64,000 nt of DNA, from positions 17,670,001 to 17,734,000 of the forward strand of contig NC_047018.1 of NCBI RefSeq assembly GCF_902652985.1, written 5' to 3'. Source of the DNA: Pecten maximus. Taxonomy: Eukaryota. The translations under genes were made by a program, and so were the position numbers. Every line of letters begins with the position of its first letter. Within the stretch, counting starts at the first letter, position 1. The notes under the pieces were generated by a model. It was not told where the DNA came from. It worked only from the letters and a program-made list of their open reading frames with translations, and did no database searches. Positions 11,421 to 57,988 of this stretch are shown here, piece after piece.

Positions 11421-11635
11421 CTAAGATGACGTCATAATAACACAATTTTTCTCACTCATAACCCTCGCTGCGGTTGATTCTATCGTAGCGCATAGCGAAC
11501 CGTTGCCATGATGTCGATCAAAATGAGGTAGCAATGACGTCATGTGATCTTGGTTGCATCTATACGCTCATAGATGCAGCCCAAATTAACACTGAGGCAG
11601 TGGAAGACTGTAGTGCCAACTTTTAAAAAAAATGT

Positions 11636-33661: not shown

Positions 33662-35496
33662 CAGTGGCGTAGGAAGCGGGGGGGCAGGGGGGGCAAGTTT
33701 GAGAGTTAAAGAATCAACTATTGTGATACTCTCAAAATTACCTTTACTCTTTATGTTTCAGGTGGCAAATCATGAACTTATCAGTCCGCGGACAAATTAA
33801 CTTTATAACTAGAATAAATGAACACCCGTCTTTTATGCTGACACAGTACGAATAAAAATGCATCCCTCTTGTCAAAAAATTGTCTAACATGTAACTTATT
33901 AACGCCTAGCAAGGAATATAACAATGACATCGCCTTGCAATGATTGTTTATGGATACCCTAAACACGTTTCAACAGTGGGAAACGCTCCTGTTATTCTGA
34001 ACATCATCCTAAAGTCTACCAAAGCTTATATATAATCAGAATCATTTGAACTTAGTTGGACCTAGCTAAGGATATTCAACTTCAATACTCACACAGCGAT
34101 AATCCAGGTCGTCCAACTGCGAAAAGCAGACCGATGAAAAATATACCCCTTGCCATCAGGAATACATACGGAAGACTGTCTGCCGAGTTTTGTTACTGTA
34201 TAAATGACCGCCAAGTATCATTGCGTCAACAGGAAGAGATAAATTTCATTTGGAGTCAAACTTATCTTATATATATGTATATATATTCCTACAGTTGATG
34301 TAATTACACTGTTACTACATTGTACATATAAACTAATGTCAACAGATCATGCCCTTACACTGACAGTTAATATAACTGTCAGTGGCGTAGGAAGCGGGGG
34401 GGCAGGGGGGGCAATTGCCCCCCCACTTTTTACAGTGGGGGGGCAAACATGTCTTTTTGCCCCCCCACTTTTTGACATCCAAAATCTAAAAAAAGGGGAA
34501 AAAACACGAATTTATATATTCATTTCGATAAATATCTGTATATTTTCGAACCGATAATGTTTTCTTGAAGGCAACGATAAAAACTTTATCTTGTACATCC
34601 GGAACATTCCGACTTTTATACTAGTATACCAATCCTCAGACCTGTGTGTCGGTCGTCTGCACTAGCCTGGTAAGTCAATATTTATATCTTAATACGAAAT
34701 TTTGCTTAACTTAATCACATAGTTTCAATAAGTTGATGATAATTTGTGAAGTTAATTGAGTTCATAATGAGAACAAGACAGAAACACAACATAAATAAGA
34801 ATGCGCGGTTTTAACGTGAATCGAGTGATACTATTTACCAACAGGTACGAGGAAATACAAAAAAAAATCGGCTCGCGCCTACGGCGCTCGCTTTATCACT
34901 AAATTACTGCCCCCCCCCCCTTTCGATTGCAGATCCACAGGGGGACTTTGCCACCCTGGTACCCGCTTGGCGACCCCCAAACCTCTCGCAAAAAGGGGAA
35001 AAAAATCGGATCGCGCCTACGGCGCTCGCATGATTACTTAATTACTGGACCCCCTTTCGAAAACTCTGGATCCGCGCCTGATCCCGAATTATTGGAAATG
35101 TGCTATATTTCATTTTCCGCGAAGGGCTTAGACCCCCTTGAACCCCCTATCAGGGCGCTGCCCTGGACCCGCTGGGCGGCCCCTCAGACCCCTCGTTGAA
35201 AAAAAAAATAAAATAAAATCGGCTCGCGCCTACGGCGCTCGCATTATTACTTAACTACTGGAAATTTCGAAAATCCTGGCCGGGCCTGGTGATTCATGTT
35301 TTGCCATAAATAATATATCCTGATTTGCGTAAATAACTTATTTTGTACTACATAAATTATCAAAATTATCATGGGATGTTGAAATGATAATTATTGGCTA
35401 ATTTTGCGGAGATGGCATACGATTTGTTTAGTGCGTAAAATTTAAGGTTAAAAAAAATTTTGCCCCCCCACTTTTTGACGACTTCCTACGCCACTG
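33662..35496 (+). mobile_element. Composite DNA-transposon insertion: 35-bp terminus + 683 bp captured flank + full 1.1-kb non-autonomous hAT-like element (34380-35496)
   Basis: TIR CAGTGGCGTAGGAAG at 33662 and 34380, and inverted ending at 35496. TATGG on both sides (33657-33661, 35497-35501). 33697-35496 is the reverse complement of 36845-38643. Confidence 0.8.
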
Positions 35497-36544
35497 TATG
35501 GTACGTTAAGTTCGACTTAGCAGCGACGTCGGTAATCCCGGCTTTACTGGTTGAATTGCTTACATACTATGTTAAAATATAGTCACTGCAGTGCAGATGA
35601 AAATATATTTTGTGAATATCCACATATGAAAAATCCCAATGTGTTAACAGCCCACTTCCGTCCGTGTTATGTGTTGTATCTGACCGTGTTTATTACATTT
35701 CCTGTTCATCGGACTTATCCCATCCCACTCACTACGTTTCTTAATGGTCATCGAGTATAATTGTTTTATGGAAGAAAGTTTAGTATCATTCATTTTACAT
35801 CATATATATATACCGCATATAATATTTCATAAACACAAAACAAAGAAAATTACCTAGTAGACGTTGTAAAAAATATATATAGATTGATTAACTTTAGGAG
35901 CATTATAGTTCTTCTACATGCAGGACAAGCAACTGGATTAAAAAATATACTATTTTTTTTAATGAAGATTAAAACAGCAGCCTGTGGACTAACAACTGCT
36001 GTTGGTACAGGAGGTCAAATTGAGGTAATCCGCCGATGTTTTATAGCACTCGGCCTTTGGCCTCGTTCAATAGAACATCGGTCGTACTATGGTACCTCGT
36101 GTCAAATATTCTGGACTATTGCACAGACACTTATGATATATTGGCCTCAGACCACAATTAATTTCCCTATTTCTTATACCAATGTAAAATGATTATTTAT
36201 AACTATTCAAGCTGAAAGTACTTCATGACCTGCATTTAAGAAATATATTTTTGTTTAAATGTTACCACCCCCCTATATTATGGGAAAATCCGGAAAATTA
36301 CAAAATATCACTACTCCGGCCTTATAACACCTTGTGTCCCTGCACAAACAAACATGGAAATGGTGTCAAAACAAAATTCTCTAACTAAAATAGATATTGA
36401 ACTACAAATATATGTTTAAATTATGCACATATCTGCAATAGCTAAGTCAGAAAAAAATATTTAGTAACATACCTCAAATTTACTTTTGCACTACATTCGT
36501 GTACAACGACCCGGAAGTATAATTGTGGTCTGAGGCCAGTATTT

Positions 36545-36844
36545 GTATAATATTAACTGTCAAGGTAATGTCATAATATGTTTTAATACTTTATATAGTA
36601 ACTATTTTATATCAAGTTATATCAACTGTCAGGGTAACGGCATAATATGTTGCCAATAGTTTATATAGTAACTGTTTATATCAAGTTATATTAACTGTCA
36701 GGGTAAAGTCATAATCTGTTTTAATAGTTTATATGGTAACTACATTCTGTATTTTGTATCCAGTTATATTAACAGTCAGGGTAAGGGCATGATCTGTTTT
36801 AATAGTTGATATGGTAACTACATTCTGTATTTTATATCCAGTTA
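36545..36844. repeat. Tandem repeat, ~70-78-bp unit, continuing after the transposon at 37961-38030
   Basis: atattaactgtcagggtaa..cataat.tgttttaatagtttatat repeated. Confidence 0.8.
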
Positions 36845-37960
36845 CAGTGGCGTAGGAAGTCGTCAAAAAGTGGGGGGGGCAAAATTTTTTTTAACCTTAA
36901 ATTTTACGCACTAAACAAATCGTATGCCATCTCCGCAAAATTAGCCAATAATTATCATTTCAACATCCCATGATAATTTTGATAATTTATGTAGTACAAA
37001 ATAAGTTATTTACGCAAATCAGGATATATTATTTATGGCAAAACATGAATCACCAGGCCCGGCCAGGATTTTCGAAATTTCCAGTAGTTTAGTAATAATG
37101 CGAGCGCCGTAGGCGCGAGCCGATTTTATTTTATTTTTTTTTCAACGAGGGGTCTGAGGGGCCGCCCAGCGGGTCCAGGGCAGCGCCCTGATAGGGGGTT
37201 CAAGGGGGTCTAAGCCCTTCGCGGAAAATGAAATATAGCACATTTCCAATAATTCGGGATCAGGCGCGGATCCAGAGTTTTCGAAAGGGGGTCCAGTAAT
37301 TAAGTAATCATGCGAGCGCCGTAGGCGCGATCCGATTTTTTTCCCCTTTTTGCGAGAGGTTTGGGGGTCGCCAAGCGGGTACCAGGGTGGCAAAGTCCCC
37401 CTGTGGATCTGCAATCGAAAGGGGGGGGGGCAGTAATTTAGTGATAAAGCGAGCGCCGTAGGCGCGAGCCGATTTTTTTTTGTATTTCCTCGTACCTGTT
37501 GGTAAATAGTATCACTCGATTCACGTTAAAACCGCGCATTCTTATTTATGTTGTGTTTCTGTCTTGTTCTCATTATGAACTCAATTAACTTCACAAATTA
37601 TCATCAACTTATTGAAACTATGTGATTAAGTTAAGCAAAATTTCGTATTAAGATATAAATATTGACTTACCAGGCTAGTGCAGACGACCGACACACAGGT
37701 CTGAGGATTGGTATACTAGTATAAAAGTCGGAATGTTCCGGATGTACAAGATAAAGTTTTTATCGTTGCCTTCAAGAAAACATTATCGGTTCGAAAATAT
37801 ACAGATATTTATCGAAATGAATATATAAATTCGTGTTTTTTCCCCTTTTTTTAGATTTTGGATGTCAAAAAGTGGGGGGGCAAAAAGACATGTTTGCCCC
37901 CCCACTGTAAAAAGTGGGGGGGCAATTGCCCCCCCTGCCCCCCCGCTTCCTACGCCACTG
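36845..37960 (-). mobile_element. Non-autonomous hAT-like DNA transposon; putative donor copy
   Basis: 15-bp TIR CAGTGGCGTAGGAAG/CTTCCTACGCCACTG. Three internal gcgagcgccgtaggcgcga repeats. Inserted in a tandem array; TSD is ambiguous (ccagtta/acagtta). Confidence 0.85.
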
Positions 37961-39333
37961 ACAGTTATATTAACTGTCAGTGTAAGGGCATGATCTGTTG
38001 ACATTAGTTTATATGTACAATGTAGTAACAGTGTAATTACATCAACTGTAGGAATATATATACATATATATAAGATAAGTTTGACTCCAAATGAAATTTA
38101 TCTCTTCCTGTTGACGCAATGATACTTGGCGGTCATTTATACAGTAACAAAACTCGGCAGACAGTCTTCCGTATGTATTCCTGATGGCAAGGGGTATATT
38201 TTTCATCGGTCTGCTTTTCGCAGTTGGACGACCTGGATTATCGCTGTGTGAGTATTGAAGTTGAATATCCTTAGCTAGGTCCAACTAAGTTCAAATGATT
38301 CTGATTATATATAAGCTTTGGTAGACTTTAGGATGATGTTCAGAATAACAGGAGCGTTTCCCACTGTTGAAACGTGTTTAGGGTATCCATAAACAATCAT
38401 TGCAAGGCGATGTCATTGTTATATTCCTTGCTAGGCGTTAATAAGTTACATGTTAGACAATTTTTTGACAAGAGGGATGCATTTTTATTCGTACTGTGTC
38501 AGCATAAAAGACGGGTGTTCATTTATTCTAGTTATAAAGTTAATTTGTCCGCGGACTGATAAGTTCATGATTTGCCACCTGAAACATAAAGAGTAAAGAT
38601 TATTTTGAGAGTATCACAATAGTTGATTCTTTAACTCTCAAACAATGGGAACCTAATAGAACATTCCCAAATTTAAACTTAGTGAAAAGATATCTTCCTT
38701 TATTCGCTAACCCGACCAGGTTGTCCAAGAGCGTAACCGTCTTCTGTTCCCCCCCAAAAAATGCGCTACGTTAATCTAGATCAAATCCAAATACTAGTAC
38801 TGGCGACCTCTTTAACTGATTCTAAAATGATGGAAATGAAGACTTTTTCTTCATATTTTATGAGAATATGAAAAATGTTTCAAACATGTTGTTAATACCA
38901 TATAACTTACTTATCCATGTGTATCATTGACTATGGTGTACGTTTGTCTGTCCCACATATCAAATCAAATCATATTAAATGAATGCCACAGTTAGGGGAA
39001 GCAGGCTTGCTACTATATACCCCCTCAACCATTTATATGTATTCCATCCCTGTAAAAACTTACTTAGTATATCTATATTTCTCGGAATTGAGTCTGAATA
39101 GCGTACTTGCAAAGGCAGTATGATATATGAATGTATAAGGATTCGGTGGAACTCTTTAACTCTGTCGGTCCCCAGAAAATATCGGGAAAGGTCATCACCG
39201 CCGGAAGTGATGCCCTTTAAGAGAATACAAAACTGGAGCTTGTAGGGTTTTTTTAAGGTGAAAATGGATATATGCATATTGTTAAAAACTTAATGATTTA
39301 ACGTTTTAAAACTAGTATCTGTTTTAAACAACT

Positions 39334-39833
39334 NNNNNNNNNNNNNNNNNNNNNNNNNNNNNNNNNNNNNNNNNNNNNNNNNNNNNNNNNNNNNNNNNNN
39401 NNNNNNNNNNNNNNNNNNNNNNNNNNNNNNNNNNNNNNNNNNNNNNNNNNNNNNNNNNNNNNNNNNNNNNNNNNNNNNNNNNNNNNNNNNNNNNNNNNNN
39501 NNNNNNNNNNNNNNNNNNNNNNNNNNNNNNNNNNNNNNNNNNNNNNNNNNNNNNNNNNNNNNNNNNNNNNNNNNNNNNNNNNNNNNNNNNNNNNNNNNNN
39601 NNNNNNNNNNNNNNNNNNNNNNNNNNNNNNNNNNNNNNNNNNNNNNNNNNNNNNNNNNNNNNNNNNNNNNNNNNNNNNNNNNNNNNNNNNNNNNNNNNNN
39701 NNNNNNNNNNNNNNNNNNNNNNNNNNNNNNNNNNNNNNNNNNNNNNNNNNNNNNNNNNNNNNNNNNNNNNNNNNNNNNNNNNNNNNNNNNNNNNNNNNNN
39801 NNNNNNNNNNNNNNNNNNNNNNNNNNNNNNNNN
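39334..39833. other. Assembly gap (500 N)
   Basis: Run of exactly 500 N. Order and orientation across it cannot be verified from the sequence. Confidence 1.
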
Positions 39834-40984
39834 ATAAATGTCCATGTTTGTAAAATATTACATATATTCACTAACCTACATGATTACCACTTAGCTTAGG
39901 TATACCTATCTACCTACATGTACATATATACAAAATTGATTTTCTCAAAGAAATCAAAATTATATCACAAAATTATTGATATGATTTCTGAAAGCACTGA
40001 TGCAAAAAATACAGATGTAAGTAATATATATATATATTTCTTTTTTAATTTAAATTAATATAAATTAAAATGCAAAAATTATGTGAATTTTTGTAAATAT
40101 TCAGAAAACCTGTAGCGTACGTACTAGCTACCAAAAGTTGTAGATAAGTCATGATCACTTGATAAAATACAAGAAACCACAGTGACTGTAAAAAATATGA
40201 TTGACACTGTATCGATGCATTACTGGTCTCAATCATATGAATGTTTTATCGTGTTTTACTAGACGATACCTCAAGCCGCCAATTTTAAAATTGAAATTAA
40301 TCGGTAAAGCATGACTTCAAATGTAAAATGATCTCATAATGAAAATCGAATCATTGAATGATGTCTTACAAATATTTGCTGTTTGTTCAGATTTTAATAT
40401 CTTCACACCACAATGGTGGTGAACACAAAATACAGAAATAAGATTAACACAATCTTCACTATAAATCAGCACACATACTGTTGTATGTAACATTTCATTA
40501 CATTTAGCTAGGTCGCTTTCTGTAAACAGGTAAAGGGAGGTAACTTCATAGTTAAAAATAAATCTACGTCAATAGAGACCTTAAAAAATAAATACAAAAA
40601 AAAAAAAAAATGAAAGAAAATAAAATAAAATATACGGAAAGAAAGGCAACACGGCTTGAATGAATAATTATTGAAAAATTTCAATATTTTGAAAGAAATT
40701 GTCTACATTTCAACAATACCTGCACAGGAGGACCTCCGACACTTTTGTAGTATGTATAGACAGATGAAACAAAAGTTTAATTCAGTCAGAATTTACACTT
40801 TTATCAGATATATAATCAATACTATCTCAAACCAATCATATTTAAACAGATGTAAAATTTGACATTCAGTTAAATGCTATACAATATCTATATACCATGA
40901 GTATAATCAATAAAAACAAAAACATTATCACAACTGTATAATCTTCAATTCAACTTGATCCCAGATATGCATGTGGCAACATGG

Positions 40985-45977: not shown

Positions 45978-46370
45978 TAGAGCTGTGTATCGCAAGGTGG
46001 GTAGCGATACGATTCGTATCATGATACAGGGGTCATGATACGATATATGAGAAGCTGATGACCTATCAGATATCTGGTATTCCATTGTACAGTAGTCATG
46101 TTTTGTTTGTGGTATTTCCGGAATATTTGAGTCTTTGTCTATATTTGTCACAAAACATACGTTTTGTACGTACGTTTCCCACAAAGCGTTCTTGAATTTA
46201 GATAATTTGGATTTAAAAGAACTCCAACAGGCAGCTTTATAAGCTGCTGGAATTGCCTTGTCAGCCATGTTGGTTACTACAAAACGTATGCTAACGTTGG
46301 TCAAGGGAGATAACTACACATTTTCAAGAATCGAGATACAAATCAAGGATAGACGATGCATCGATGCACC
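45978..46370 (+). mobile_element. One-sided remnant of a small DNA element with gatacga-rich subterminal repeats, cut by the LTR
   Basis: Begins tagagctgtgtatcg with cgatac/gtatc motifs. No matching inverted end or continuation was seen beyond the retrotransposon. Confidence 0.45.
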
Positions 46371-47493
46371 TGTTGCCGCCCAGCCCGTAAGGCTAGAGAA
46401 AACAACTTTTTGTGGATCTTTTGTCCCCAGTTGTTAAACAGACCAGAACAGACAAACAAAGACAGATATAAATTTAAAGCATTTATTAACAAGCACAATC
46501 AACAAATATACAATGTATAGTTACCCCTAATGCCTCATTTAATAGGCTTACCCCTAGAAATATACAGTAACTAATAATGCACAGTCATAGTGAAGGTGCA
46601 AGGCAAGTCCTCAGAAGGTGCACTGTGAAGGTGCTACCAGACCGTGAAGGTGCTACCTACTCTGAAGGTGCAATCAGTGAAGGTGCTACCAAGCATAGAA
46701 TGGTGCTACAGTGTCTACTAAGGTGCATTATTGGCCTTAAGATATTCATATACCATAAGGTTTACATAATAAATACATAAATAATAGTAAATTGATTGAC
46801 TGAATAGTTATAACTCCATACACGCGACCGTACACATCTTCCTGAAGGTGCAACCAAGTCTGAAGGTGCTGCTAAGTCTGAAGGTGCTATTTAGCACAAC
46901 TTATATATATATATTCAGCACTGGGATCATACAGTAAATTGTCTGTCCAACAGCATTATGTTCTCCTGCTGGGTATTTACCTCGGCTGCCATAGCTATGC
47001 ATACAATCTGGTTCAATCTGGTTCAGCTATCAGCTACAGGGACGTGGGCTACCGTTCACGACAGAATGCCACTCTGTGCTGGCTGTCACCGCTATTTATG
47101 CACTGTGTGACGTCACAAATCTGTAGACGTCACACCCATTCAATTTCCCGCGCTCGTTGACTCTCAATACTGTCAGCCAATCAGCAGCGTTGTTACAACA
47201 GTTAGGCAAATGCTCTTGAATCCCGGCGATGTTTACGAAGAACAACTCTCCTTGTTTACGATGCAAAAACCGCTATTTTCTGATGAAATACAGACTGCTA
47301 CATCGTAATTATGATCAATAGGTATGTGTTATGTGTTCAAGAACCGTTAGTTTTAATAGTCTTGTATCGTCAATACGTATAATGAATATAACAGCGGAGA
47401 ATCGGACTCGTGTGCAAACAGCTGGCTGCGCCATATTGTTTTGCTGTCTCGGACATGTGGTCGGGAACAGACTGCACTGCCGTGTGTGTAACA
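46371..47493 (-). repeat. 3' LTR (1123 bp)
   Basis: TGTTACAC...GCGGCAACA on the minus strand. Direct repeat of 55982-57109. Confidence 0.97.
46482..46487 (-). terminator. Putative poly(A) signal AATAAA in the 3' LTR
   Basis: AATAAA on the element strand ~110 nt from the LTR end, followed by GT/T-rich sequence. Confidence 0.6.
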
Positions 47494-47506
47494 TTGCCCC
47501 CTTCTT
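47494..47506 (-). promoter_or_regulatory. Polypurine tract
   Basis: AAGAAGGGGGCAA immediately before the 3' LTR TG. Confidence 0.9.
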
Positions 47507-49185
47507 AAGAATTGGCTTTGGTCTCCAAAGAGGTAAGTGGTCGGTATTATTCATTATATTATTCTGACTGACACATGTCAATGATGTATATCATAATTTG
47601 AGCACCCAGTCGTTTCATCAATCCAACCACGTGTTTATACCAGTCAGTCAAATTCACACATTTCCATGTCCGACCGCTCACCATGCTTGGTTGTCACGTG
47701 TATTTCATTGCACAGTCTGTCTCAGCAATAATAAATGTCATGGTATGCCCATGACCATTTGTGAAATAGATATATCTACTGAAGTACATGTTACATAATA
47801 TAATTTGCAATTTTATTATAAAAGTCACTGGATAGTCAGTGAAATAACCATTCTGTACATGGAAATAGAAATTATGAGATTGTTCCATTCCCAAAAACAT
47901 ACATGTACATATATGTAGATATATCTACTGGCAAAGCAATAAAAACTTGACTGCCATATAAAATACCATATTTAATATTGGTACAAATTTGCAATATTAA
48001 TGATCATCAGCTTTCAATTGTCATCAGTTAAGATCATAATCAATAAGACAAAGGATTATTGATCATTAAAAATTGAGACAAAATTCATAACATGCTTAAT
48101 GCAAATTACTTAACATAAAAAAAATATTTAACAGACTGTACACCTTAGTTCAGTTCTAACACAATAATTTGAAAATATATTACTTTTACCTTGATAATGG
48201 TATTGTACATACTTTAAAAATATAAATATATATATTACTTTTACCTTGATGTACAAAAATAGTAGCAATTATTAAATTACTGATTTGAGTAAAAAAATAG
48301 ATAATATCTTAATTCAAAAACACTCAGTCTGGCGCTCTTGAAACTGTCAACATATACATGTATGACTCTGCTAAGTATAAATATTTTAGCTGCATGTATT
48401 CAAAGTATATATATATATATATATATGCTGTATTCATAATGTGATATATGATGCTCCTGAGTCCTGATTTCCAAGTATTTTCTTAATTTTCTTTCAGTTG
48501 TTGGAGGTTCTGGAACAGGCTGCTACAAAGCACCTCAGCTCGGGTTAAAACTCAGCAACTTGTTATGACGGTAATGACCACAGGTGTATTCAGGGTTATA
48601 CTCAACTTATAGGTATCACAATTGCAAGTCCTCATGCAGGAATCAGGAAGTTCACATATATATCTCCATCAGTCTCCTGAGGGGTAATTTTACAATATGT
48701 AACATAAATTTACAATATGTGTCCTGCATGTCCTATGACTGCTATATCAAAAATGTATGTACTTAATTAAAGATACATTATATGATCCATAGTTACATGA
48801 ATCTAAGTTAATACACACACCATGTGTTATATATTACAACCATACATTACTAGTCATTAGTTTTAAGCTATTTCACTGATATATATATAGTGACAATAAT
48901 ACTAATGTCATATTAAGTCTCCTGAAAAGACTAACATTCTCACATTTCCATATATTATATTAAGTAATTGTTCAATTAGATAAATAGAAAGAAACAGACT
49001 TTGTGAAATGCAGAAGTATAAGATCTGTTTGTTGATCTGTAGAATTATATAGTAGTCTGGTAAAAATAAAACCATTAATTTAAGCCTACAATTAAAGTTT
49101 CAATAAATATAAAATTGTGTATTTTCTTAATCTATTGAGGCTGGAATCTACTTTGCTACAATCTATAATTTGTTTTCTACTATTT

Positions 49186-50703
49186 CTATAGGAGAGAAGA
49201 TATTCTCAAGTCCAGGACATCATGGAGATGACTCAGCTGGTAGTAGTCAGCCTCCATCTGGAGTTCTCTCAGGAAATGGATGTCCGTGGGAAGGGTCTCC
49301 ATGTTTACCCTCATCCTGTTCCGATAATAATTTAGGATAAATCTAAAATGTGAGTAATCACGATCGATAAAATATGTATAAACTCCCTCCACAGAATACG
49401 GTTTGATTCCGAGTTTCTTCTGCACCATTCTGTGAAGAAGACTATTGGGAACTTCTGCCAAAGTTGTCGCTGATGTCTCGAACCTCTTCCCGCCTACATT
49501 TAATATAATTCGTTTGTTCTGTGATCTTCTAAGTTGTTCCATTCGTCTATCTCTTACCACTGCCCCCTCCGTTCTACTACTACTGCTATGACTTCTTTCT
49601 CTGCTACTACCATGACTAGAGCCTCTGCTGCTGCTTCTGCTCCTACTGTCTCCGCTACTGTCTCTACTACTGCTTCTACTACTTCCTCTACTGACTTGTT
49701 CCTCTGTAACTGTCACCTCCTCTATCTCGCCTAAATCGTCTATCTCCAACTGATTCATATCCCCATTCTTTGTCTCCTCCCTCTCCTTCTCCTGTATGAC
49801 AGCCTCCTCTATCTCCTGTCTTCTTTCTTCTTGCTGTTTCCTCTCCTCCTGTCTTTCCTCTTGTCTCTCCTTGTCTTGTCTCTCCTTCTCCTGTCTCTCT
49901 TTCTCTTGTCTCTCCTTCTCCTGTCTCTCCTTCTCCTGTCTCTCCTTCTCCTGTCTCTCCTTCTCCTGTGTCTCCTTCTCCTGTCTCTCCTTCTCCTGTG
50001 TCTCCTTCTCCTGTCTCTCCTTTTCCTGTCTTTCCTTCTCTTGTCTTTCCTTCTCTTGTCTCTCCTTCTCTTGTCTCTCCTTCTCTTGTCTCTCCTTCTC
50101 TTGTCTCTCCTTCCCCTGTCTTTCTTTTTCCTGTCTTTCCTTCTCTTGTCTCTCCTTTTCCAGTCTCTTTTTTTTCTTCCTTCTCTCCTGTCTCTCTTTT
50201 TCTTGTCTCTCCTTGTCTAGTCTCTCCTTGTCTTGTCTCTCCTCCACCTTTTGTGGGCTCTCTTCCTTTTCTTTCTTTTCATTTCCGTGTTTCCCATCAT
50301 CAATCCTCTGCACTTTGTTACTGTCTATGACTTCCAGACTTTCCCTGCTGATCTCCCTTTTCCTTTTTTCTGTCTTCTGATGGCTTATTGTTCTGTTCTC
50401 AGTTGACTGGTTTGGTTTTCCAGCAACAGTGGTAATCAGTTGGACGGTGGACCTCAGGAACCTATTGTACTCATCATCGACCCCTGGACCACTCGTCATA
50501 TCTGCCCTCCTGACCAGGGTCATCTCGGGGAGTTTCCCGTCTTTGCAGCATTGATGCTTCGATGTTGACCGATTAAATAGCAGCTTGCATCTCTGGCACT
50601 TCCAAGCAAAGCCGGAGTGCTGCTCCAGCATATGTCGCTTGGCCAGGTATTTGGCACGGAAACGATAAGTATTATCACACAGGCTGCAGGAAAACATGCA
50701 CTC
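49186..50703 (-). CDS. Retrotransposon accessory ORF3: two zinc fingers, (KERQE)n charged helix, Ser/Arg-rich tract, KCTD/Kv-T1-type BTB/POZ domain
   Basis: Intact frame of 505 codons after a strong acceptor (cctcctacttttttttattgcag|GAG). CSLC-x12-RHMLEQH (C2H2) and CQRC..KHQC. BTB motifs IILNVGGKRFETSATTL, YFIDRDYSHFRFILNYYR, LQMEADYYQL. Confidence 0.9.
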   Translation of the reverse strand, partial: ECMFSCSLCDNTYRFRAKYLAKRHMLEQHSGFAWKCQRCKLLFNRSTSKHQCCKDGKLPEMTLVRRADMTSGPGVDDEYNRFLRSTVQLITTVAGKPNQSTENRTISHQKTEKRKREISRESLEVIDSNKVQRIDDGKHGNEKKEKEESPQKVEERQDKERLDKERQEKERQERRKKKKRLEKERQEKERQEKERQGKERQEKERQEKERQEKERQEKERQEKERQEKERQEKETQEKERQEKETQEKERQEKERQEKERQEKERQEKERQEKERQDKERQEERQEERKQQEERRQEIEEAVIQEKEREETKNGDMNQLEIDDLGEIEEVTVTEEQVSRGSSRSSSRDSSGDSRSRSSSRGSSHGSSRERSHSSSSRTEGAVVRDRRMEQLRRSQNKRIILNVGGKRFETSATTLAEVPNSLLHRMVQKKLGIKPYSVEGVYTYFIDRDYSHFRFILNYYRNRMRVNMETLPTDIHFLRELQMEADYYQLSHLHDVLDLRISSLL

Positions 50704-50771
50704 CTGCAATAAAAAAAAGTAGGAGGAACTAAGCTATGATGAAATAATCGTTTTACTCGATATATAAGTTT

Positions 50772-53700
50772 CTAAAGAGTTATTGTGGTTTTCCCAACAT
50801 ATAACTTCAGATGATCATGGTGTACAACCTTGGGTTTGGACTTAGCACTGCGCTGGATACGATAAATGTTGTCATTTAAACGCTCGAGTACTACAAATGG
50901 ACCGCTCCACTTTTTCTGGAATTTATTTCTTCGTCCTTTCCTTTGGGAATCATAAAGCCAAACCTGGGCACCGCGATCATATCTGTGCAATTCTGCATGT
51001 GCATCATAAGCTCTTTTCATCCTATCACTTGACAATTTTAATTTATCACGTGCAAATTTGTGAATGGTTTCTAATTGTTTGGCCAAGTTGTAAGCATAAT
51101 CACTCTGAAACTCGTGATTTTCTTTAACAGGTTCTACACGTCCGAGGACCAAATCTACCGGAAGGGAAACCTTACGGCCTAACATCATCTCGCAGGGGGA
51201 GACACCGGTACTGTCATGTTCAGCTGATCGGTAAGCTAGCATCAACAGGTAAACGTGTTGGTCCCAATCTTTTTGGTTATTTGATACAAAAGCGGATAAC
51301 ATATTCGCGATTGTTCTATTTGCTCTTTCAATCATTCCGTCTGATTGGGGTCGATAAGGTGTTGTCCTTGTCTTTTCTATTCCTAGAATATTACACATTT
51401 CTTGTATAACTGTCGATTCAAAATTTTGACCCTGGTCTGAATGTAACTGCATGGGAACTCCGAAAAGGGAGACAACTCTCTCTATAATTTTCTCTGCAAT
51501 ACTGTGAGCTTTTTGATCCCTAATTGGTACAGCATCTACCCACTTTGTAAAGTAATCACCCATCACCAACAAATAGCTATTTCCTTTACTGCTAACTGGT
51601 AGTGGTCCCATGATATCTACTGCTAGTCTTTCCATGGGGGCCCCAACAAGATATTGTTTTAAAGGGGATCTATGTTTCCTTCTAACTGTCTTCCTCTGTG
51701 CACACTGATCACAAATTCTGCACCAGTGCTTTACATCCTCCCTCAGATGGTACCAGAAATATCTTGATTTTACTTTTGATAATGTTTTCTTTACACCAAG
51801 ATGTCCACCAGTAATTGAATCATGTAATTCTTTCAAAACAAAGTCAACCAAACAGCTAGGTATTACCTTGTGATATTCTATGATACTGCCAAAATTAGAT
51901 TCCCATTGTCTAGTCAACACCCCATCTACTAGTTGTAAAGATTCGAATCTTGACCAGTAGTATTTGACAGCCTCACTCAAATGGCTTATTTCAGGCCAAG
52001 GAGGTTTTTCTCCTTTACATATCCATTGCAGAATATGCCTCAGGTCAGGATCTCTTTCCTGTAACTCTTTTAGTTTCTTTGGTGTAATGTCATTTGTTTC
52101 ATTTGTCTGGGTCTCTACACATGGTTTTGTAGGAGTCTGTAATTTGCTGGACCTAGTAATAACATCTACCTCTATGGAACAGTTATAACGTCCTTCTGCT
52201 TTACCACAGAACCTACAGTCATCCTCCCCATGGCATGGACGTCTAGATAGAGCATCAGCATTACCATGACTGCGACCTGCCCTGTGTTCAACCTCAAAGT
52301 CATATGAGGACAGCAGTTCAAACCACCTGGCTATTTGGCCTTCAGGGTTTTTGAAGTTCAACAGCCACCTGAGTGCACCATGGTCAGTCCTGACCTTAAA
52401 GTGTCGTCCATACAGGTAATGGTGGAAATGTTTGACAGAGCTCACTATAGCGAGCAATTCTCTCCTAGTCACACAATACTTTCTTTCTGTCTTGCAAAAG
52501 GCTTTACTGTAATAGCAGAGGACCTTCTCTTTTCCTTCCTGCTCTTGAGACAGTACAGCACCTAACCCATTGTCACTAGCATCTGTGTCCAAAATAAATG
52601 CACCTTCAAGTGTAGGATAAGCTAGTATGGGAGCACTTACTAGGGCTCGCTTCAGTTTGTCAAATGCAACTGCACACCCCTCACTCCAGGTAAATGTCTG
52701 ATCATGTTCAGTCAATTTGTGAAGAGGTCTAGCTATATCTGCAAAGTTCCTTACAAATCTTCTATAATAGGAGCAAAGTCCTAAGAAGCTACGAATATCC
52801 TTGACATTCTTTGGAACGGGCCAGTTCTGAACTGCAGCAATTTTACTCTGGTCTGTAGATACACCTTCATCGCTAACTACATGGCCAAGAAAGGACACTT
52901 GTTTTTGTAAAAGATTACATTTCTTTGGACTTAACTTTAGGTTTGCTTCTCTCAGCCTCTCAAATACAAGTCTAAGGTTTTCTATGTGTTTATCAAAGGT
53001 CTTTGAGAAAACAATGATATCATCTAAGTACACTAAGCATATTTTGAAGGACAACTTCATCAACACCTTCTCCATCAACCTCTCAAATGTACCAGGTGCA
53101 TTACATAATCCAAATGGCATGGATATGAACTGCCATAATCCACTGCCAGGTATTGAGAATGCTGTCTTTGGTCTGTCTTCTTCTGCAACCTTAACTTGCC
53201 AATACCCCGATTTTAGGTCAAGGGTGGAAAACCATTTTGAACCTGCAAGAGCATCTAGTGTATCGTCAATTCGAGGCAAAGGGTGGGAATCTTTGATAGT
53301 CACGTCATTAAGTCTCCTATAGTCAATGCAAAATCTAATTGACTGATCTTTCTTTTTCACTAACACTACAGGCGAAGACCAGGGGCTATCAGAAGGTTCT
53401 ATGATACCTTTATCTGCCATATCCTTTATCTCTTGTTCTGCCTCTTGAACCTTAGAAAGGGGTATCCTTCTAGGATGTTGTCGGATAGGGCGTGTAGTAC
53501 CTGTATCTATCTTGTGTTGTACTAAATTAGTCATCCCCATGTCGTCTGTTGATTTTGAGAAAACATCCTGATTATCAATCAGCAGATCTTTTAGTAAATC
53601 TCTCTCCCCTGGGGATAAATTGTGACTAGATCTTGTGAACATATCATTTAAATGTTCTGGTATTTCCTGCTCTTTAGGTGTTTGGTCAGTTCCTATTTGA

Positions 53701-54545
53701 TTTACAATATGTTCCTCAATAGTACAGTCATCTAAGGCTTCTACATTGGCTATGACAGTTTCACTGTATAGCGTATAGGGCTCATCACCTAGATTCACTA
53801 CTCTAATGGGTACTACTCCTCTGCTGGGGTCAATGACAGTTTTAGCAATGAGAACATTCTCAGATTGCTTAAATCTCTGTGAGGGTTCTACCAATCCATT
53901 GGTTTCCCTCCAGACGGGATCCATAAATCTGCCTGTGATAATCATCTCACTATTTGCGGGAACAATCTGTTTCTCCACCACAGCCACTCTTGAACACGAG
54001 GGCTTTTTCTCCTCACAAAATTTGAAACAGGGTACCTTCATACCGTCAACCGCTATACACTGCTTACTCAGCAACACATCACAGGAGTTTTTAGACAGGA
54101 AATCCATACCAATGATTCCTTTGTCCTTAATATCTGCCACAAGCACATTGTGCTTAAACACATTTGATCCTAACTGTATATTGACTACACATTCTCCAAC
54201 AAAGGGTTTCCTATCCCCAGTAGCTGTTACTAAATCTATTTCTACAGGAACAATATTCAGGTCAAACTCCAGGCTTTGTATAAAGTTATTACTTAAAATA
54301 GTAACATTCGCCCCAGTATCTATAAGCATAGGAATGAGTTGATTCTGAACCTTAGCTGACACAAACAACCCTTCTCTAGTTCCCCCTGAACTTCTAACAG
54401 AAATCTGCTTTCTATTTTTCTCTGATTCTCCATGATTGATATTTTCTCTTTCATATCCTTCACCCTTGTTATTATACTTAAGATCCCTTGAGGGCCCATC
54501 TATTCTAGTCGAGCTGCGGCCCCCAACTACGACTGAACTTGGTTT
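50772..54545 (-). CDS. pol: Pol polyprotein (protease, reverse transcriptase, RNase H, integrase), translated by -1 frameshift from gag
   Basis: LIDTGA, RFCIDYRRLN, LDLKSGYWQV, MPFGL, YLDD, DTDAS, TDH, HHCC (H..GGHLG..CRICDQC), DDE (AVDIMGP, HSDQG, GMIERAN), GPF motif. Uninterrupted. Confidence 0.98.
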   Translation of the reverse strand, partial: KPSSVVVGGRSSTRIDGPSRDLKYNNKGEGYERENINHGESEKNRKQISVRSSGGTREGLFVSAKVQNQLIPMLIDTGANVTILSNNFIQSLEFDLNIVPVEIDLVTATGDRKPFVGECVVNIQLGSNVFKHNVLVADIKDKGIIGMDFLSKNSCDVLLSKQCIAVDGMKVPCFKFCEEKKPSCSRVAVVEKQIVPANSEMIITGRFMDPVWRETNGLVEPSQRFKQSENVLIAKTVIDPSRGVVPIRVVNLGDEPYTLYSETVIANVEALDDCTIEEHIVNQIGTDQTPKEQEIPEHLNDMFTRSSHNLSPGERDLLKDLLIDNQDVFSKSTDDMGMTNLVQHKIDTGTTRPIRQHPRRIPLSKVQEAEQEIKDMADKGIIEPSDSPWSSPVVLVKKKDQSIRFCIDYRRLNDVTIKDSHPLPRIDDTLDALAGSKWFSTLDLKSGYWQVKVAEEDRPKTAFSIPGSGLWQFISMPFGLCNAPGTFERLMEKVLMKLSFKICLVYLDDIIVFSKTFDKHIENLRLVFERLREANLKLSPKKCNLLQKQVSFLGHVVSDEGVSTDQSKIAAVQNWPVPKNVKDIRSFLGLCSYYRRFVRNFADIARPLHKLTEHDQTFTWSEGCAVAFDKLKRALVSAPILAYPTLEGAFILDTDASDNGLGAVLSQEQEGKEKVLCYYSKAFCKTERKYCVTRRELLAIVSSVKHFHHYLYGRHFKVRTDHGALRWLLNFKNPEGQIARWFELLSSYDFEVEHRAGRSHGNADALSRRPCHGEDDCRFCGKAEGRYNCSIEVDVITRSSKLQTPTKPCVETQTNETNDITPKKLKELQERDPDLRHILQWICKGEKPPWPEISHLSEAVKYYWSRFESLQLVDGVLTRQWESNFGSIIEYHKVIPSCLVDFVLKELHDSITGGHLGVKKTLSKVKSRYFWYHLREDVKHWCRICDQCAQRKTVRRKHRSPLKQYLVGAPMERLAVDIMGPLPVSSKGNSYLLVMGDYFTKWVDAVPIRDQKAHSIAEKIIERVVSLFGVPMQLHSDQGQNFESTVIQEMCNILGIEKTRTTPYRPQSDGMIERANRTIANMLSAFVSNNQKDWDQHVYLLMLAYRSAEHDSTGVSPCEMMLGRKVSLPVDLVLGRVEPVKENHEFQSDYAYNLAKQLETIHKFARDKLKLSSDRMKRAYDAHAELHRYDRGAQVWLYDSQRKGRRNKFQKKWSGPFVVLERLNDNIYRIQRSAKSKPKVVHHDHLKLYVGKTTITL

Positions 54546-54548
54546 CCC
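54493..54548 (-). promoter_or_regulatory. -1 ribosomal frameshift signal: slippery heptamer G GGA AAC plus a putative H-type pseudoknot
   Basis: GGGAAAC at 54548-54542 in the gag frame; pol is in the -1 frame. Downstream stem agtcg.agttg/cagctcgact has a loop gggcc complementary to ggccc further 3'. Confidence 0.8.
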
Positions 54549-55789
54549 TGGTTGATGTTTCCATTGTACCACCCATTGGAGTTTCCCCCTTTCTGGTTGG
54601 ACCATTTTCTATTTGAATTACCACTCGGGTTCCATCCCCTTTGGTGGTTATTTGACTGAGTTTGTTTATTTCCCCCTTTATTTGAGTCTACTTTTGTTTT
54701 ACTGTCAGACTGCTTCTGTAATTTCACCAAGGCCTTAATTTCCTTTGTGAGAGAGCTAAGCTCATCTTTGAATCCCTGAAGCAAGGAGGCAGTGCTGTCA
54801 GTTTCACAAGTGGGTTTTTGTGTGCTGTCAGCCGTAGTACTACAGACTGTGCGTGTAGGTCTACTCCTTTGCTTATCTGCAAGTCGATGGGTCTCAAGTC
54901 TAACTGCTTGGATTTCTGCTTCATTTATGTCTCTTGGTCTTGACTCCTTTAGTCGCAGTCTTATGTCAGCGTCTGGAATTGATTCAATGAAATTTTCCAG
55001 TGCTAGAGTCCCTACTAATTTGGAGTCAGCAGTCGGGTAGGCACGTCGTGTCAGTCTCCTTATTGATTGAGCTAATTCCGGAATTGATTCCTCTTTAGCA
55101 CGTACACGAGTTTGTAATTGAGCTCGAAATAATTCCGCTTTTTCTGCAGAACCAAATCTAAATTTCAAGGCTTCAACTAAAGATTTGAAATCTCTACGAC
55201 TGGTTTCATCTAACTCGCTCAGAACTGCACGGGCACTTCCAGATAAACTACCAGCTAAATACAGTGATTTAGAAGCATATGACCAATTGTTTAGTTCCGC
55301 TAAGATTTCAAACTGCGAGATATATTCCTCAAAGTCTTCGCACCCGTCATACTGCTGTGGCTTCATTAAAACCTTATTTACTGCAGCATGTTTTGATTGG
55401 AAAGGTACACTCGGAAATGAATTTGTACGGTTATCATTCCTATTTCGGTCATTGTTTAACGGTGTGCTATGCCTAGAACCCATTATGTGATCACCACGAT
55501 CATCTTCAACACCTATCTCTGCATCTTGTACTTTATTTTCTAAATCTTCAAGAACTGCTCTTAGATTATTGATTTGTTCTTTTAATTCACCTTTATCTGC
55601 CCTGCATTTAATGTTCTCTACATTTCTATTTTCAGATACAGTTTCTCTATCTGGTACAACAATTTCAGCATCCTCAATGGGACAACTAGAGCTCATCTGC
55701 ACCTCAGTATCATCACCTTCATGTGTACTAGCATTTTCATCCATGCCAATCAACAGATTACGGCCAAAGAACACCTCAGAGTCATCCAT
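54527..55789 (-). CDS. gag: Gag (capsid-like), 420 aa
   Basis: Lies after the PBS. KPQQYDGCEDFEEYISQFE, LAGSLSGSA, LKFRFG, R.RAKEESIPELAQSIRRLTRRAYP. No CCHC knuckle. Confidence 0.95.
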   Translation of the reverse strand: MDDSEVFFGRNLLIGMDENASTHEGDDTEVQMSSSCPIEDAEIVVPDRETVSENRNVENIKCRADKGELKEQINNLRAVLEDLENKVQDAEIGVEDDRGDHIMGSRHSTPLNNDRNRNDNRTNSFPSVPFQSKHAAVNKVLMKPQQYDGCEDFEEYISQFEILAELNNWSYASKSLYLAGSLSGSARAVLSELDETSRRDFKSLVEALKFRFGSAEKAELFRAQLQTRVRAKEESIPELAQSIRRLTRRAYPTADSKLVGTLALENFIESIPDADIRLRLKESRPRDINEAEIQAVRLETHRLADKQRSRPTRTVCSTTADSTQKPTCETDSTASLLQGFKDELSSLTKEIKALVKLQKQSDSKTKVDSNKGGNKQTQSNNHQRGWNPSGNSNRKWSNQKGGNSNGWYNGNINQGNQVQS

Positions 55790-55962: not shown

Positions 55963-55980
55963 ATCCCACTTCTGACACCA
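55963..55980 (-). promoter_or_regulatory. Primer binding site complementary to the tRNA-Leu 3' end
   Basis: TGGTGTCAGAAGTGGGAT, one base after the 5' LTR. Confidence 0.9.
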
Positions 55981-56596
55981 ATGTTGCCGCCCAGCCCGTA
56001 AGGCTAGAGAAAACAACTTTTTGTGGATCTTTTGTCCCCAGTTGTTAAACAGACCAGAACAGACAAACAAAGACAGATATAAATTTAAAGCATTTATTAA
56101 CAAGCACAATAATCAACAAATATACAATGTATAGTTACCCCTAATGCCTCATTTAATAGGCTTACCCCTAGAAATATACAGTACCTAATAATGCACAGTC
56201 ATAGTGAAGGTGCAAGGCAAGTCCTCAGAAGGTGCACTGTGAAGGTGCTACCAGACCGTGAAGGTGCTACCTACTCTGAAGGTGCAATCAGTGAAGGTGC
56301 TACCAAGCATAGAATGGTGCTACAGTGTCTACTAAGGTGCATTATTGGCCTTAAGATATTCATATACCATAAGGTTTACATAATAAATACATAAATAATA
56401 GTAAATTGATTGACTGAATAGTTATAACCCCATACACGCGACCGTACACATCTTCCTGAAGGTGCAACCAAGTCTGAAGGTGCTGCTAAGTCTGAAGGTG
56501 CTATTTAGCACAACTTATATATATATATATTCAGCACTGGGATCATACAGTAAATTGTCTGTCCAACAGCATTATGTTCTCCTGCTGGGTATTTAC

Positions 56597-56608
56597 CTCG
56601 GCTGCCAT
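56597..56608 (-). CDS. Putative 4-codon initiator mini-exon (MAAE) for ORF3, inside the 5' LTR
   Basis: gctATGGCAGCCGAG|GTAAAT: good Kozak context and a phase-0 donor, ~100 nt downstream of a TATA-like box. In frame with the phase-0 acceptor at 50703. Confidence 0.6.
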
Positions 56609-56679
56609 AGCTATGCATACAATCTGGTTCAATCTGGTTCAGCTATCAGCTACAGGGACGTGGGCTACCGTTCACGACA

Positions 56680-56800
56680 GAATGCCACTCTGTGCTGGCT
56701 GTCACCGCTATTTATGCACTGTGTGACGTCACAAATCTGTAGACGTCACACCCATTCAATTTCCCGCGCTCGTTGACTCTCAATACTGTCAGCCAATCAG
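56680..56800 (-). promoter_or_regulatory. Putative LTR Pol II promoter
   Basis: CATAAATAG TATA-like box (56716-56708), TGACGTCA CRE palindrome (~56724-56731), CCAAT box (~56793), Inr-like GCATTC ~25-30 nt downstream of the TATA-like box. Confidence 0.6.
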
Positions 56801-57109
56801 CAGCGTTGTTACAACAGTTAGGCAAATGCTCTTGAATCCCGGCGATGTTTACGAAGAACAACTCTCCTTGTTTACGATGCAAAAACCGCTATTTTCTGAT
56901 GAAATACAGACTGCTACATCGTAATTATGATCAATAGGTATGTGTTATGTGTTCAAGAACCGTTAGTTTTAATAGTCTTGTATCGTCAATACGTATAATG
57001 AATATAACAGCGGAGAATCGGACTCGTGTGCAAACAGCTGGCTGCGCCATATTGTTTTGCTGTCTCGGACATGTGGTCGGGAACAGACTGCACTGCCGTG
57101 TGTGTAACA

Positions 57110-57988
57110 GATGTCCACTTATAGGTAGCGTCATGGTAGATGTCCACTTATAGGTAACGTCATGGTAGATGTCCACTTATAGGTAACGTCATGGTAGATG
57201 TCCACTTATAGGTAACGTCATGGTAGATGTCCACTTATAGGTAACGTCATGGTAGATGTCCACTTATAGGTGGCGTCATGGTAGATGTCCACTTATAGGT
57301 AACGTCATGGTAGATGTCCACTTATAGGTAGCGTCATGGTAGATGTCCACTTATAGGTAACGTCATGGTAGATGTCCACTTATAGGTAACGTCATGGTAG
57401 ATGTCCACTTATAGGTAACGTCATGGTAGATGTCCACTTATAGGTAACGTCATGGTAGATGTCCACTTATAGGTAACGTCATGGTAGATGTCCACTTATA
57501 GGTAACGTCATGGTAGATGTCCACTTATAGGTAACGTCATGGTAGATGTCCACTTATAGGTAACGTCATGGTAGATGTCCACTTATGGGTAACGTCATGG
57601 TAGATGTCCACTTATAGGTAGCGTCATGGTAGATGTCCACTTATAGGTAACGTCATGGTAGATGTCCACTTATAGGTGGCGTCATGGTAGATGTCCACTT
57701 ATAGGTAACGCTATGGTAGATGTCCACTTATAGGTAACGTCATGGTAGATGTCCACTTATAGGTAGCGTCATGGTAGATGTCCACTTATAGGTGGCGTCA
57801 TGGTAGATGTCCACTTATAGGTGGCGTCATGGTAGATGTCCACTTATAGGTAACGTTATGGTAGATGTCCACTTATAGGTAACGCTATGGTAGATGTCCA
57901 CTTATAGGTAACGCTATGGTAGATGTCCACTTTGGGGTAGCGTCATGGTAGATGTCCACTTATAGGTAACGCTATGGTAGATGTCCAC
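57110..57988. repeat. Satellite, 29-bp unit, ~30 copies, abutting the LTR
   Basis: ggtagatgtccacttataggtaacgtcat. Confidence 0.97.

Follow-up and report, generated by a model that had tools for sequence, protein, structure and literature searches.

A clade of mollusc Gypsy retrotransposons carries a conserved zinc-finger and BTB accessory gene behind pol

The window analysed here, a stretch of 64 kb of Pecten maximus DNA, contains on its minus strand a Gypsy element of ~10.7 kb with the order 5' LTR, gag, pol, ORF3, and 3' LTR (Table 1). With two LTRs, a primer-binding site, a polypurine tract, gag, and an order that runs from protease through reverse transcriptase and RNase H to integrase, the element has the features of Ty3/Gypsy retrotransposons. 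The original prediction had placed an intact frame of 505 codons 68 nt past the pol stop and inside both LTRs, and the coordinates confirm this placement, the strand being minus; of note, position 50703 is a splice acceptor and not simply the start of the frame. Counted from the first ATG, the ORF3 protein has 503 residues, and the stop-to-stop frame comprises 515 codons. The LTR pair is identical at 1120 of 1122 aligned bases, with two small indels (99.4% identity), and because three further near-identical LTRs are present elsewhere in the genome, we conclude that the family of the window element moved recently. No matching target-site duplication was found at the window copy (plus-strand flanks CACC on the left and GATG on the right); GATG is present on the right flank and also four bases off the left end, as if the left junction had gained four bases. 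In the flanks examined (46350-46370 and 57110-57130), the 5' LTR is followed by a 29-nt tandem array. Elsewhere in the window, a long near-perfect inverted repeat (33697-38643; arms of 1226 nt plus inner arms) is possibly a foldback or non-autonomous DNA transposon, and tandem arrays with units of 21 nt and 31 nt, together with an N gap, occupy 11500-14100, 15540 onward, and ~39330-39840; the long ORFs in these arrays arise from the repeats.

Table 1 Features of the Gypsy element and its transcripts in the window
Feature	Position	Strand	Comment
5' LTR	55982..57109	-	1128 nt; TG..CA ends
Predicted exon 1 in LTR	56597..56716	-	TATA-like box near 56716; candidate donor after 56597; predicted from sequence
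11 dispersed GCACCTTC-like motifs	56205..56505	-	In 5' LTR; repeated in 3' LTR
Primer-binding site	55963..55980	-	Presumably of tRNA-Leu type
gag	54527..55789	-	420 aa; Retrotrans_gag E=4e-4, below cut-off
pol	50772..54605	-	Protease, RT, RNase H, integrase (Gypsy order); frame overlaps gag end
Spacer from pol stop to ORF3 frame	50704-50771	-	Exactly 68 nt
Splice acceptor	50704..50730	-	Pyrimidine tract, then TTGCAG; phase 0 with ORF3
ORF3 exon	49186..50703	-	505 codons; first ATG is codon 3, at 50697
N-terminal domain of ORF3	50413..50697	-	~95 aa: C2H2 finger, C2HC finger, strand and helix
Variable charged linker of ORF3	49546..50412	-	RRKKKKR, 18 KERQE units, S/R tract; not conserved between families
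C-terminal KCTD/T1-type BTB and preceding helix	49189..49545	-	From Pfam and predicted structure
Non-coding stretch	47494..49185	-	1.7 kb; polypurine tract at its end; no stop-free frame >76 codons
3' LTR	46371..47493	-	1123 nt; antisense RNA contig extends into it
Antisense exons	LTR-47532, 48498-48570, 49192-49349	+	Predicted; placed by length and a single loose end
Antisense exons	50403 or 50424-50646, 51131-51230, 52210-52415, 55636 onward	+	Joints seen

Eight ORF3 sequences of ~30% identity to the window copy were aligned, and none of the eight zinc ligands varies among them (C6, C9, H24, and H29 in the C2H2 finger; C36, C39, H50, and C53 in the C2HC finger), nor do R23, R45, and R66; the residues ahead of the first His differ by family. 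The finger domain is predicted as one confident unit of ~95 residues (pLDDT 88.7). Matches of the fingers to Pfam families were all below the cut-off, Foldseek with the finger domain gave no matches at E<=0.001, and the ESM Atlas returned for the finger only generic small C2H2 clusters and a sub-threshold likeness to ZNF451. In the VIA comparison, most partners aligned with residues 1-57 were tandem C2H2 pairs in the DNA-bound state (Z 3.5-4.0, rmsd ~3), the best score (Z 5.3) was obtained with the viral AFV1p06 finger, and HIM-8/ZIM-2 reached Z ~3; Z-scores below 8 may reflect no more than a common arrangement, and we treat these matches as leads only. The C2H2 finger and second Cys/His finger of the original prediction have invariant ligands, and the zf-C2H2 match expected there is sub-threshold.

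The linker between the two domains is 116-285 residues long across families, charged or serine-rich, and unalignable. The RRKKKKR, KERQE, and S/R tracts pointed out originally are present in ORF3 of the window but are not general features of the gene: KERQE, which is encoded by a 15-nt repeat and trivially stays open, occurs in one of the eight proteins scanned, and NLS-like motifs are missing from two of the eight. We therefore rejected KERQE, NLS, or S/R as defining features and regard the linker as family-specific. Because the highest 19-residue hydropathy of the window ORF3 is 0.27, it lacks a signal peptide or membrane-spanning segment; the same measure ranged from 0.27 to 1.25 over all eight proteins and revealed such a segment in none of them. 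ORF3 is, as had been argued, not env.

At the C-terminus, Pfam BTB_2 (PF02214) matches residues 397-491 of 503 (E=2.1e-19) and is the sole Pfam family over the cut-off in ORF3. The BTB model (pLDDT 90.2) has a TM of 0.73 to KCTD13, KCTD1, and KCTD10 and also matched KCTD16, in agreement with the assignment of this domain as KCTD/T1-type and C-terminal. ZBTB proteins, Tramtrack, and GAGA factor likewise combine an oligomerising BTB with C2H2 fingers, with a long linker between them. ORF3 departs from this ZBTB/BTB-ZF layout in that the order is reversed, the BTB is of the T1/KCTD type (PF02214) instead of the ZBTB type, and the second finger is C2HC. With KCTDs it has the T1-type fold and motifs in common, but in ORF3 the fingers come first and the BTB last, another loop takes the place of that between alpha2 and beta3, and the gene is retrotransposon-borne; according to the available text of PMC10856315, the KCTD family has its BTB in the N-terminal region, a rule from which ORF3 departs.

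A BTB search of the genome gave 63 matches, and in most of the best 30 the BTB is preceded by a finger domain, which in turn follows an integrase end. Among the best 23 integrase loci, which are 54-66% identical to the window copy (the window itself aside), 21 carry the finger behind integrase and 17 carry both finger and BTB; the remaining four finger carriers, which are truncated, rearranged, or situated at a contig end, comprise two loci with a finger without BTB (L167 and L172), one near a contig end (L159), and one that is rearranged (L168). The other two of the 23 (L164 and L165) belong to an intact family without ORF3. The finger and BTB profiles matched none of 35 control loci, i.e. 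33 more distant loci picked by hand among 134 listed and L164/L165, which are also within the 23. In an integrase tree of 56 rows (59 less three duplicate loci) that was built from one search with a midpoint root and no clade test, the 21 carriers form one clade (support 96/92) with the ORF3-less family as its sister. This sister family (L164/L165) is young and intact, with a target duplication and LTRs of 99.5% identity, so that close relatives are able to move in the absence of ORF3. The sister family (L181, L182, L231; G000:C5:38.67 Mb and C9:14.50 Mb) has a shorter LTR (648 nt) and a different primer-binding site and represents a natural control. Within the clade itself, LTR-bounded copies with 4-bp target duplications were found (C10, two on C11, and C5), and two primer-binding sites occur, one in C10, C11, C13c, and the window copy and the other in C5, C275, and C18b. 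At G000:C12:31752934-31777422 (L015-L017, L019, and L021), at least five copies of a fragment composed of integrase end and ORF3 follow each other at a spacing of mostly ~4.3 kb, and the copies inspected share a frame break at the BTB start.

Homologues thus sit behind a Gypsy integrase in many families of the genome as well as in mussel gene models, and the alternative that they occur solely as ordinary host genes fails. The gene belongs to the element, as had been proposed; the capture of the KCTD-type BTB, however, is old and clade-wide and not an act of the window element. Because the deep nodes of a BTB tree of 40 rows are open, neither the donor KCTD nor a single BTB origin was recovered.

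Finger and BTB are both under purifying selection. For distant families, pairwise dN/dS suffers from saturation and from the bias of a protein-guided alignment, so we relied on close pairs alone: the BTB of the window copy and that of its sister subfamily (C18a) are separated by 50 synonymous and 12 non-synonymous differences (dN/dS 0.04), and the fingers of C275 and C18b by pS 0.92 and pN 0.13. Accordingly, dN/dS among family members is far below 1, and the neutral capture that the original prediction had named as its own refutation fails. From a library of 1.84 billion representatives, we examined 148 new finger matches. A single finger domain was present in 69 of these, 24 of which have at least 150 residues behind the finger, and a BTB was found in 19 of the 24 and in none of the 78 multi-finger proteins. 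Twenty library clusters were looked up, the named carriers being Mytilus, Crassostrea, Pinctada, Pecten, Mercenaria, and the gastropod Gigantopelta; Saccostrea and Ruditapes are further carriers (with Mercenaria again), and Argopecten has a finger-only fragment (71/94 residues identical in the finger domain). Five Mytilus gene models fuse integrase directly to the finger, the linkage there being that of automatic gene models only. The finger-BTB architecture is also seen in proteins to which mollusc proteomes give the names 'BTB domain-containing', 'potassium channel regulatory protein', or 'myb-like protein X'. A full-alignment scan of metagenome contigs gave 79 loci, none with pol or a finger domain, and these loci, which look like generic BTB proteins, were rejected as ORF3 relatives; the viral contigs scanned gave no ORF3 match. 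We conclude that ORF3 is a genuine, old, and selected non-env accessory gene that is conserved in one clade of mollusc Gypsy elements, and that it is almost certainly functional in this clade.

Just ahead of the finger, at the same position and in phase 0, all intact families inspected have a pyrimidine tract and AG; an ATG is missing at this place in several of them. The predicted exon 1 of the window copy contains a strong in-frame ATG at 56608 (M-A-A-E) and, ahead of it, a weak out-of-frame ATG. In the families compared, a candidate donor lies ~80-125 nt past the LTR TATA box; these donors were chosen by eye, and that of C275/C18b (GTACGC) is weak. In three families without an ATG in the ORF3 exon, the first ATG past the LTR TATA box is in phase 0 with a GT donor, and a sister family with its own ORF3 ATG has no ATG in exon 1. 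This arrangement of sequence signals makes it likely that the ORF3 protein is made from a spliced subgenomic message. The joint between LTR donor and ORF3 was not seen in the contigs of four of the 24 runs listed, which come from four studies, one on record as RNA and three guessed to be RNA. Because in one RNA contig the ORF3 acceptor is preceded by 30 bases from a unique host exon, which ends at a GTAAGT donor, this acceptor is used in vivo; the joint probably stems from an insertion that is missing in the assembly. At the locus concerned (L071; G000:C5:4242905), one run shows the host exon, which we take to be TCP11-like, spliced out of frame to the ORF3 acceptor, suggesting a polymorphic intronic insertion that acts as a gene trap.

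On the plus strand, a spliced non-coding antisense RNA covers 47494..55737, with joints in contigs of all four studies. The GT..AG joint 51230/52210 was present in four of the four runs and the joints 50646/51131 and 52415/55636 in three each, and one contig spans from the LTR to 50424 via 270 bases, equal to three predicted exons (39+73+158). A protein-coding antisense RNA was rejected, as the longest ATG-started frame has 90 codons and starts in the LTR, and a conserved antisense gene is unlikely, since the sister copy C18a has retained neither the donor at 49350 nor the acceptor at 50403. Splicing of the antisense transcript is probably opportunistic, and a role of this RNA in silencing is a guess. 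In run X1, a contig of 2636 bases with a depth of ~900 contains a whole LTR (as at 55982-57109) between unrelated flanks and may represent a solo LTR within a host transcript of high abundance.

The LTR of the window element contains AAGGTGC 10 times, a count that none of 100 shuffles reached. In a search with exact 7- and 8-mers only, a comparable array was absent from the five other LTRs (i.e. present in one of six in total), and one of five 3' gaps showed a weak enrichment. On this sequence pattern, the GCACCTTC array is a candidate target of ORF3.

As a working model, to which we assign a probability of roughly 40%, we propose that ORF3 is an oligomeric DNA-binding self-regulator that would sustain transcription of its own family. 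Specifically, an exon in the LTR would be spliced to the acceptor behind pol, and the resulting subgenomic RNA would be translated into an ORF3 protein that would enter the nucleus. Judged from the KCTD/T1 family, the BTB would assemble four or five copies of the finger module, which would bind multivalently to the element's own DNA, and ORF3 would keep the element transcribed by an activating or anti-silencing effect in the manner of GAGA-type BTB-zinc-finger factors or VANC. The likeness to tandem C2H2 pairs, the family-variable residues before the first His, the finger-integrase fusions at L212 and L219, and the array of 11 copies in the LTR would favour a DNA ligand; the weak finger matches, the confinement of the motif array to one of six LTRs, and the mobility of the ORF3-less sister family argue against the model, as do the LTR-donor joint that was not seen in the four runs, the donors picked visually, the out-of-frame first ATG of the window copy, and the two of eight linkers that lack NLS-like motifs. 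VANC of Arabidopsis transposons is a transposon-encoded anti-silencing trans factor whose sequence is fast-evolving and family-specific, as described in the accessible part of PMC5735166. The repeated motif in the window LTR may be a further likeness to ORF3 and its element, though it is found in that LTR alone among the six. VANC-carrying transposons presumably belong to an element class other than Gypsy.

We also considered that the ligand of the fingers may be RNA. In this case, a ring of BTB domains would present the fingers, which would bind the genomic RNA in its unspliced form and either protect it or permit its export from the nucleus, as for CERV or Rev, with splicing into ORF3 mRNA as the default. 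CERV of the C. elegans element Cer1 is made from a spliced mRNA, is nuclear, is predicted to form rings of at least five with a Cys finger, and is required for genomic RNA export (PMC10309623, available text). In its gene position ORF3 matches CERV, and the logic would be alike: with a donor close to the predicted start and an acceptor behind pol, the genomic RNA would retain an intron, and KCTD BTBs are often pentamers (PMC10856315, sections available). However, because this intron exists only through ORF3, the element would have no independent need for help with export; moreover, export-signal-like patterns lie at differing places in the seven proteins scanned, with no export signal conserved among them, and ORF3 has no sequence or domain likeness to CERV, 'BTB' having 0 occurrences in the accessible text of PMC10309623. 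As described there, some exons are common to CERV and gag, and CERV is composed of H, M, and G-like domains, whereas ORF3 has a host-type KCTD BTB as its oligomer module, C2H2 and C2HC fingers, and an exon 1 predicted in the LTR; the function of CERV was demonstrated, and that of ORF3 is a proposal from sequence. Altogether, we consider the RNA-export reading rather unlikely.

A further scenario, raised in the original prediction, is that of a CUL3 adaptor or decoy in which the BTB would bind Cullin-3, or poison KCTD oligomers, and the finger would select a host restriction factor for degradation. The fold is nearest to KCTD13, KCTD1, and KCTD10, and in the available text of PMC10856315 KCTD7, 10, and 13 are CUL3 adaptors and KCTD1/15 non-binders. 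A C-terminal BTB is compatible with adaptor use, a CUL3 gene is present in the host genome, and the hydrophobic and acidic contact positions are retained, the equivalents of M76, M80, D98, and Y131 of KCTD7 being L/V, mostly M, D, and Y, respectively; these residues, however, also belong to the core of the fold. In a comparison of sequences, none of the 11 element BTBs examined retains the S-G-R-H loop (alpha2-beta3) of the CUL3-binding KCTD7, a loop that the host KCTD exon L030 does have; in its place stands a longer loop in which P-Y is nearly invariant and a strand is predicted. In human KCTDs, a longer loop, secondary structure, or a proline at alpha2-beta3 goes with CUL3 non-binding (PMC10856315, same sections). 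Because of this replacement the idea is weakened: the loop makes CUL3 binding of the element BTB less likely, and we regard an adaptor or decoy as quite unlikely.

Similarly unlikely is a role as integration tether or particle cofactor, in which the fingers would read DNA or chromatin and the oligomer would bridge to integrase or Gag. It would account for ORF3 lying always directly behind integrase and for the in-frame fusions of a finger pair to integrase that two further families (L212 and L219) show, but the clade has a stop codon and a splice acceptor between pol and ORF3, and the fused pairs do not match the clade finger profile. Finally, a neutral one-off capture or a repeat-made open frame is scarcely credible: the KERQE repeat is trivially open and ORF3 is broken in many copies of the genome, but those examined mostly have a broken pol too, and the dN/dS of 0.04, the zinc ligands that are invariant at ~30% identity, and the presence throughout the clade and in multiple species contradict it, the dN/dS value provided that the sequence pairs are correctly aligned.

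Judged from literature listings, we found no description of the finger-BTB architecture, which supplements, Repbase, GyDB, or Dfam may list. The term 'BTB' is absent from the main text of PMC6238403, PMC13524379, PMC10294476, PMC12440569, and PMC5408684, and the mentions of KCTD in the available part of PMC7084138 concern host genes. The closest parallel in gene position outside CERV is provided by LTR elements of bdelloid rotifers, which carry captured, family-specific non-envelope ORF3s behind pol, typically expressed from spliced messages; these differ from the ORF3 described here in being of the GDSL esterase, DEDDy exonuclease, coiled-coil, or membrane types, and 'zinc finger', like 'BTB', has 0 occurrences in the accessible text (PMC5408684). 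Among the 33 distant Gypsy loci of the P. maximus genome (L188-L220), a finger pair recognized by pattern lies behind integrase or is fused to it at 21, and one of the 33 has it on the opposite strand. The distant finger ORFs contain at least four other C-terminal modules (DPRFF..TLPDG, PLFPPARR..WPP, and TQT..TVTKT types and coiled coils), and the 12 that were scanned gave no Pfam family beyond weak C2H2 matches. Because the distant finger pairs do not match the clade finger profile, a common origin of these fingers is not shown. We note that the position behind integrase resembles a slot for exchangeable modules.

Complex retroviruses are well known to carry accessory genes with regulatory roles. 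Marine Gypsy elements might similarly be 'complex' retroelements with a regulatory slot that holds a finger pair and exchangeable modules; in this scenario, a mollusc-wide clade would have captured a KCTD BTB and thereby obtained an inverted, ring-forming BTB-zinc-finger factor for family-by-family self-recognition that resists host silencing, with a spliced antisense RNA made alongside. Taken as a whole, we consider this broader picture doubtful. Among Gypsy elements, CERV is the tested case of a regulatory accessory gene known from the available text of PMC10309623. As ORF3 is an old, selected accessory gene built on a recognisable host domain, its mechanism, including oligomeric state, ligand, and CUL3 binding, is directly testable. 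Mollusc proteins that have the finger-BTB architecture and are annotated as BTB/KCTD-like are likely transposon genes that inflate KCTD counts, and the finger pair behind integrase at 21 of 33 distant loci points to an overlooked class of retrotransposon regulators.
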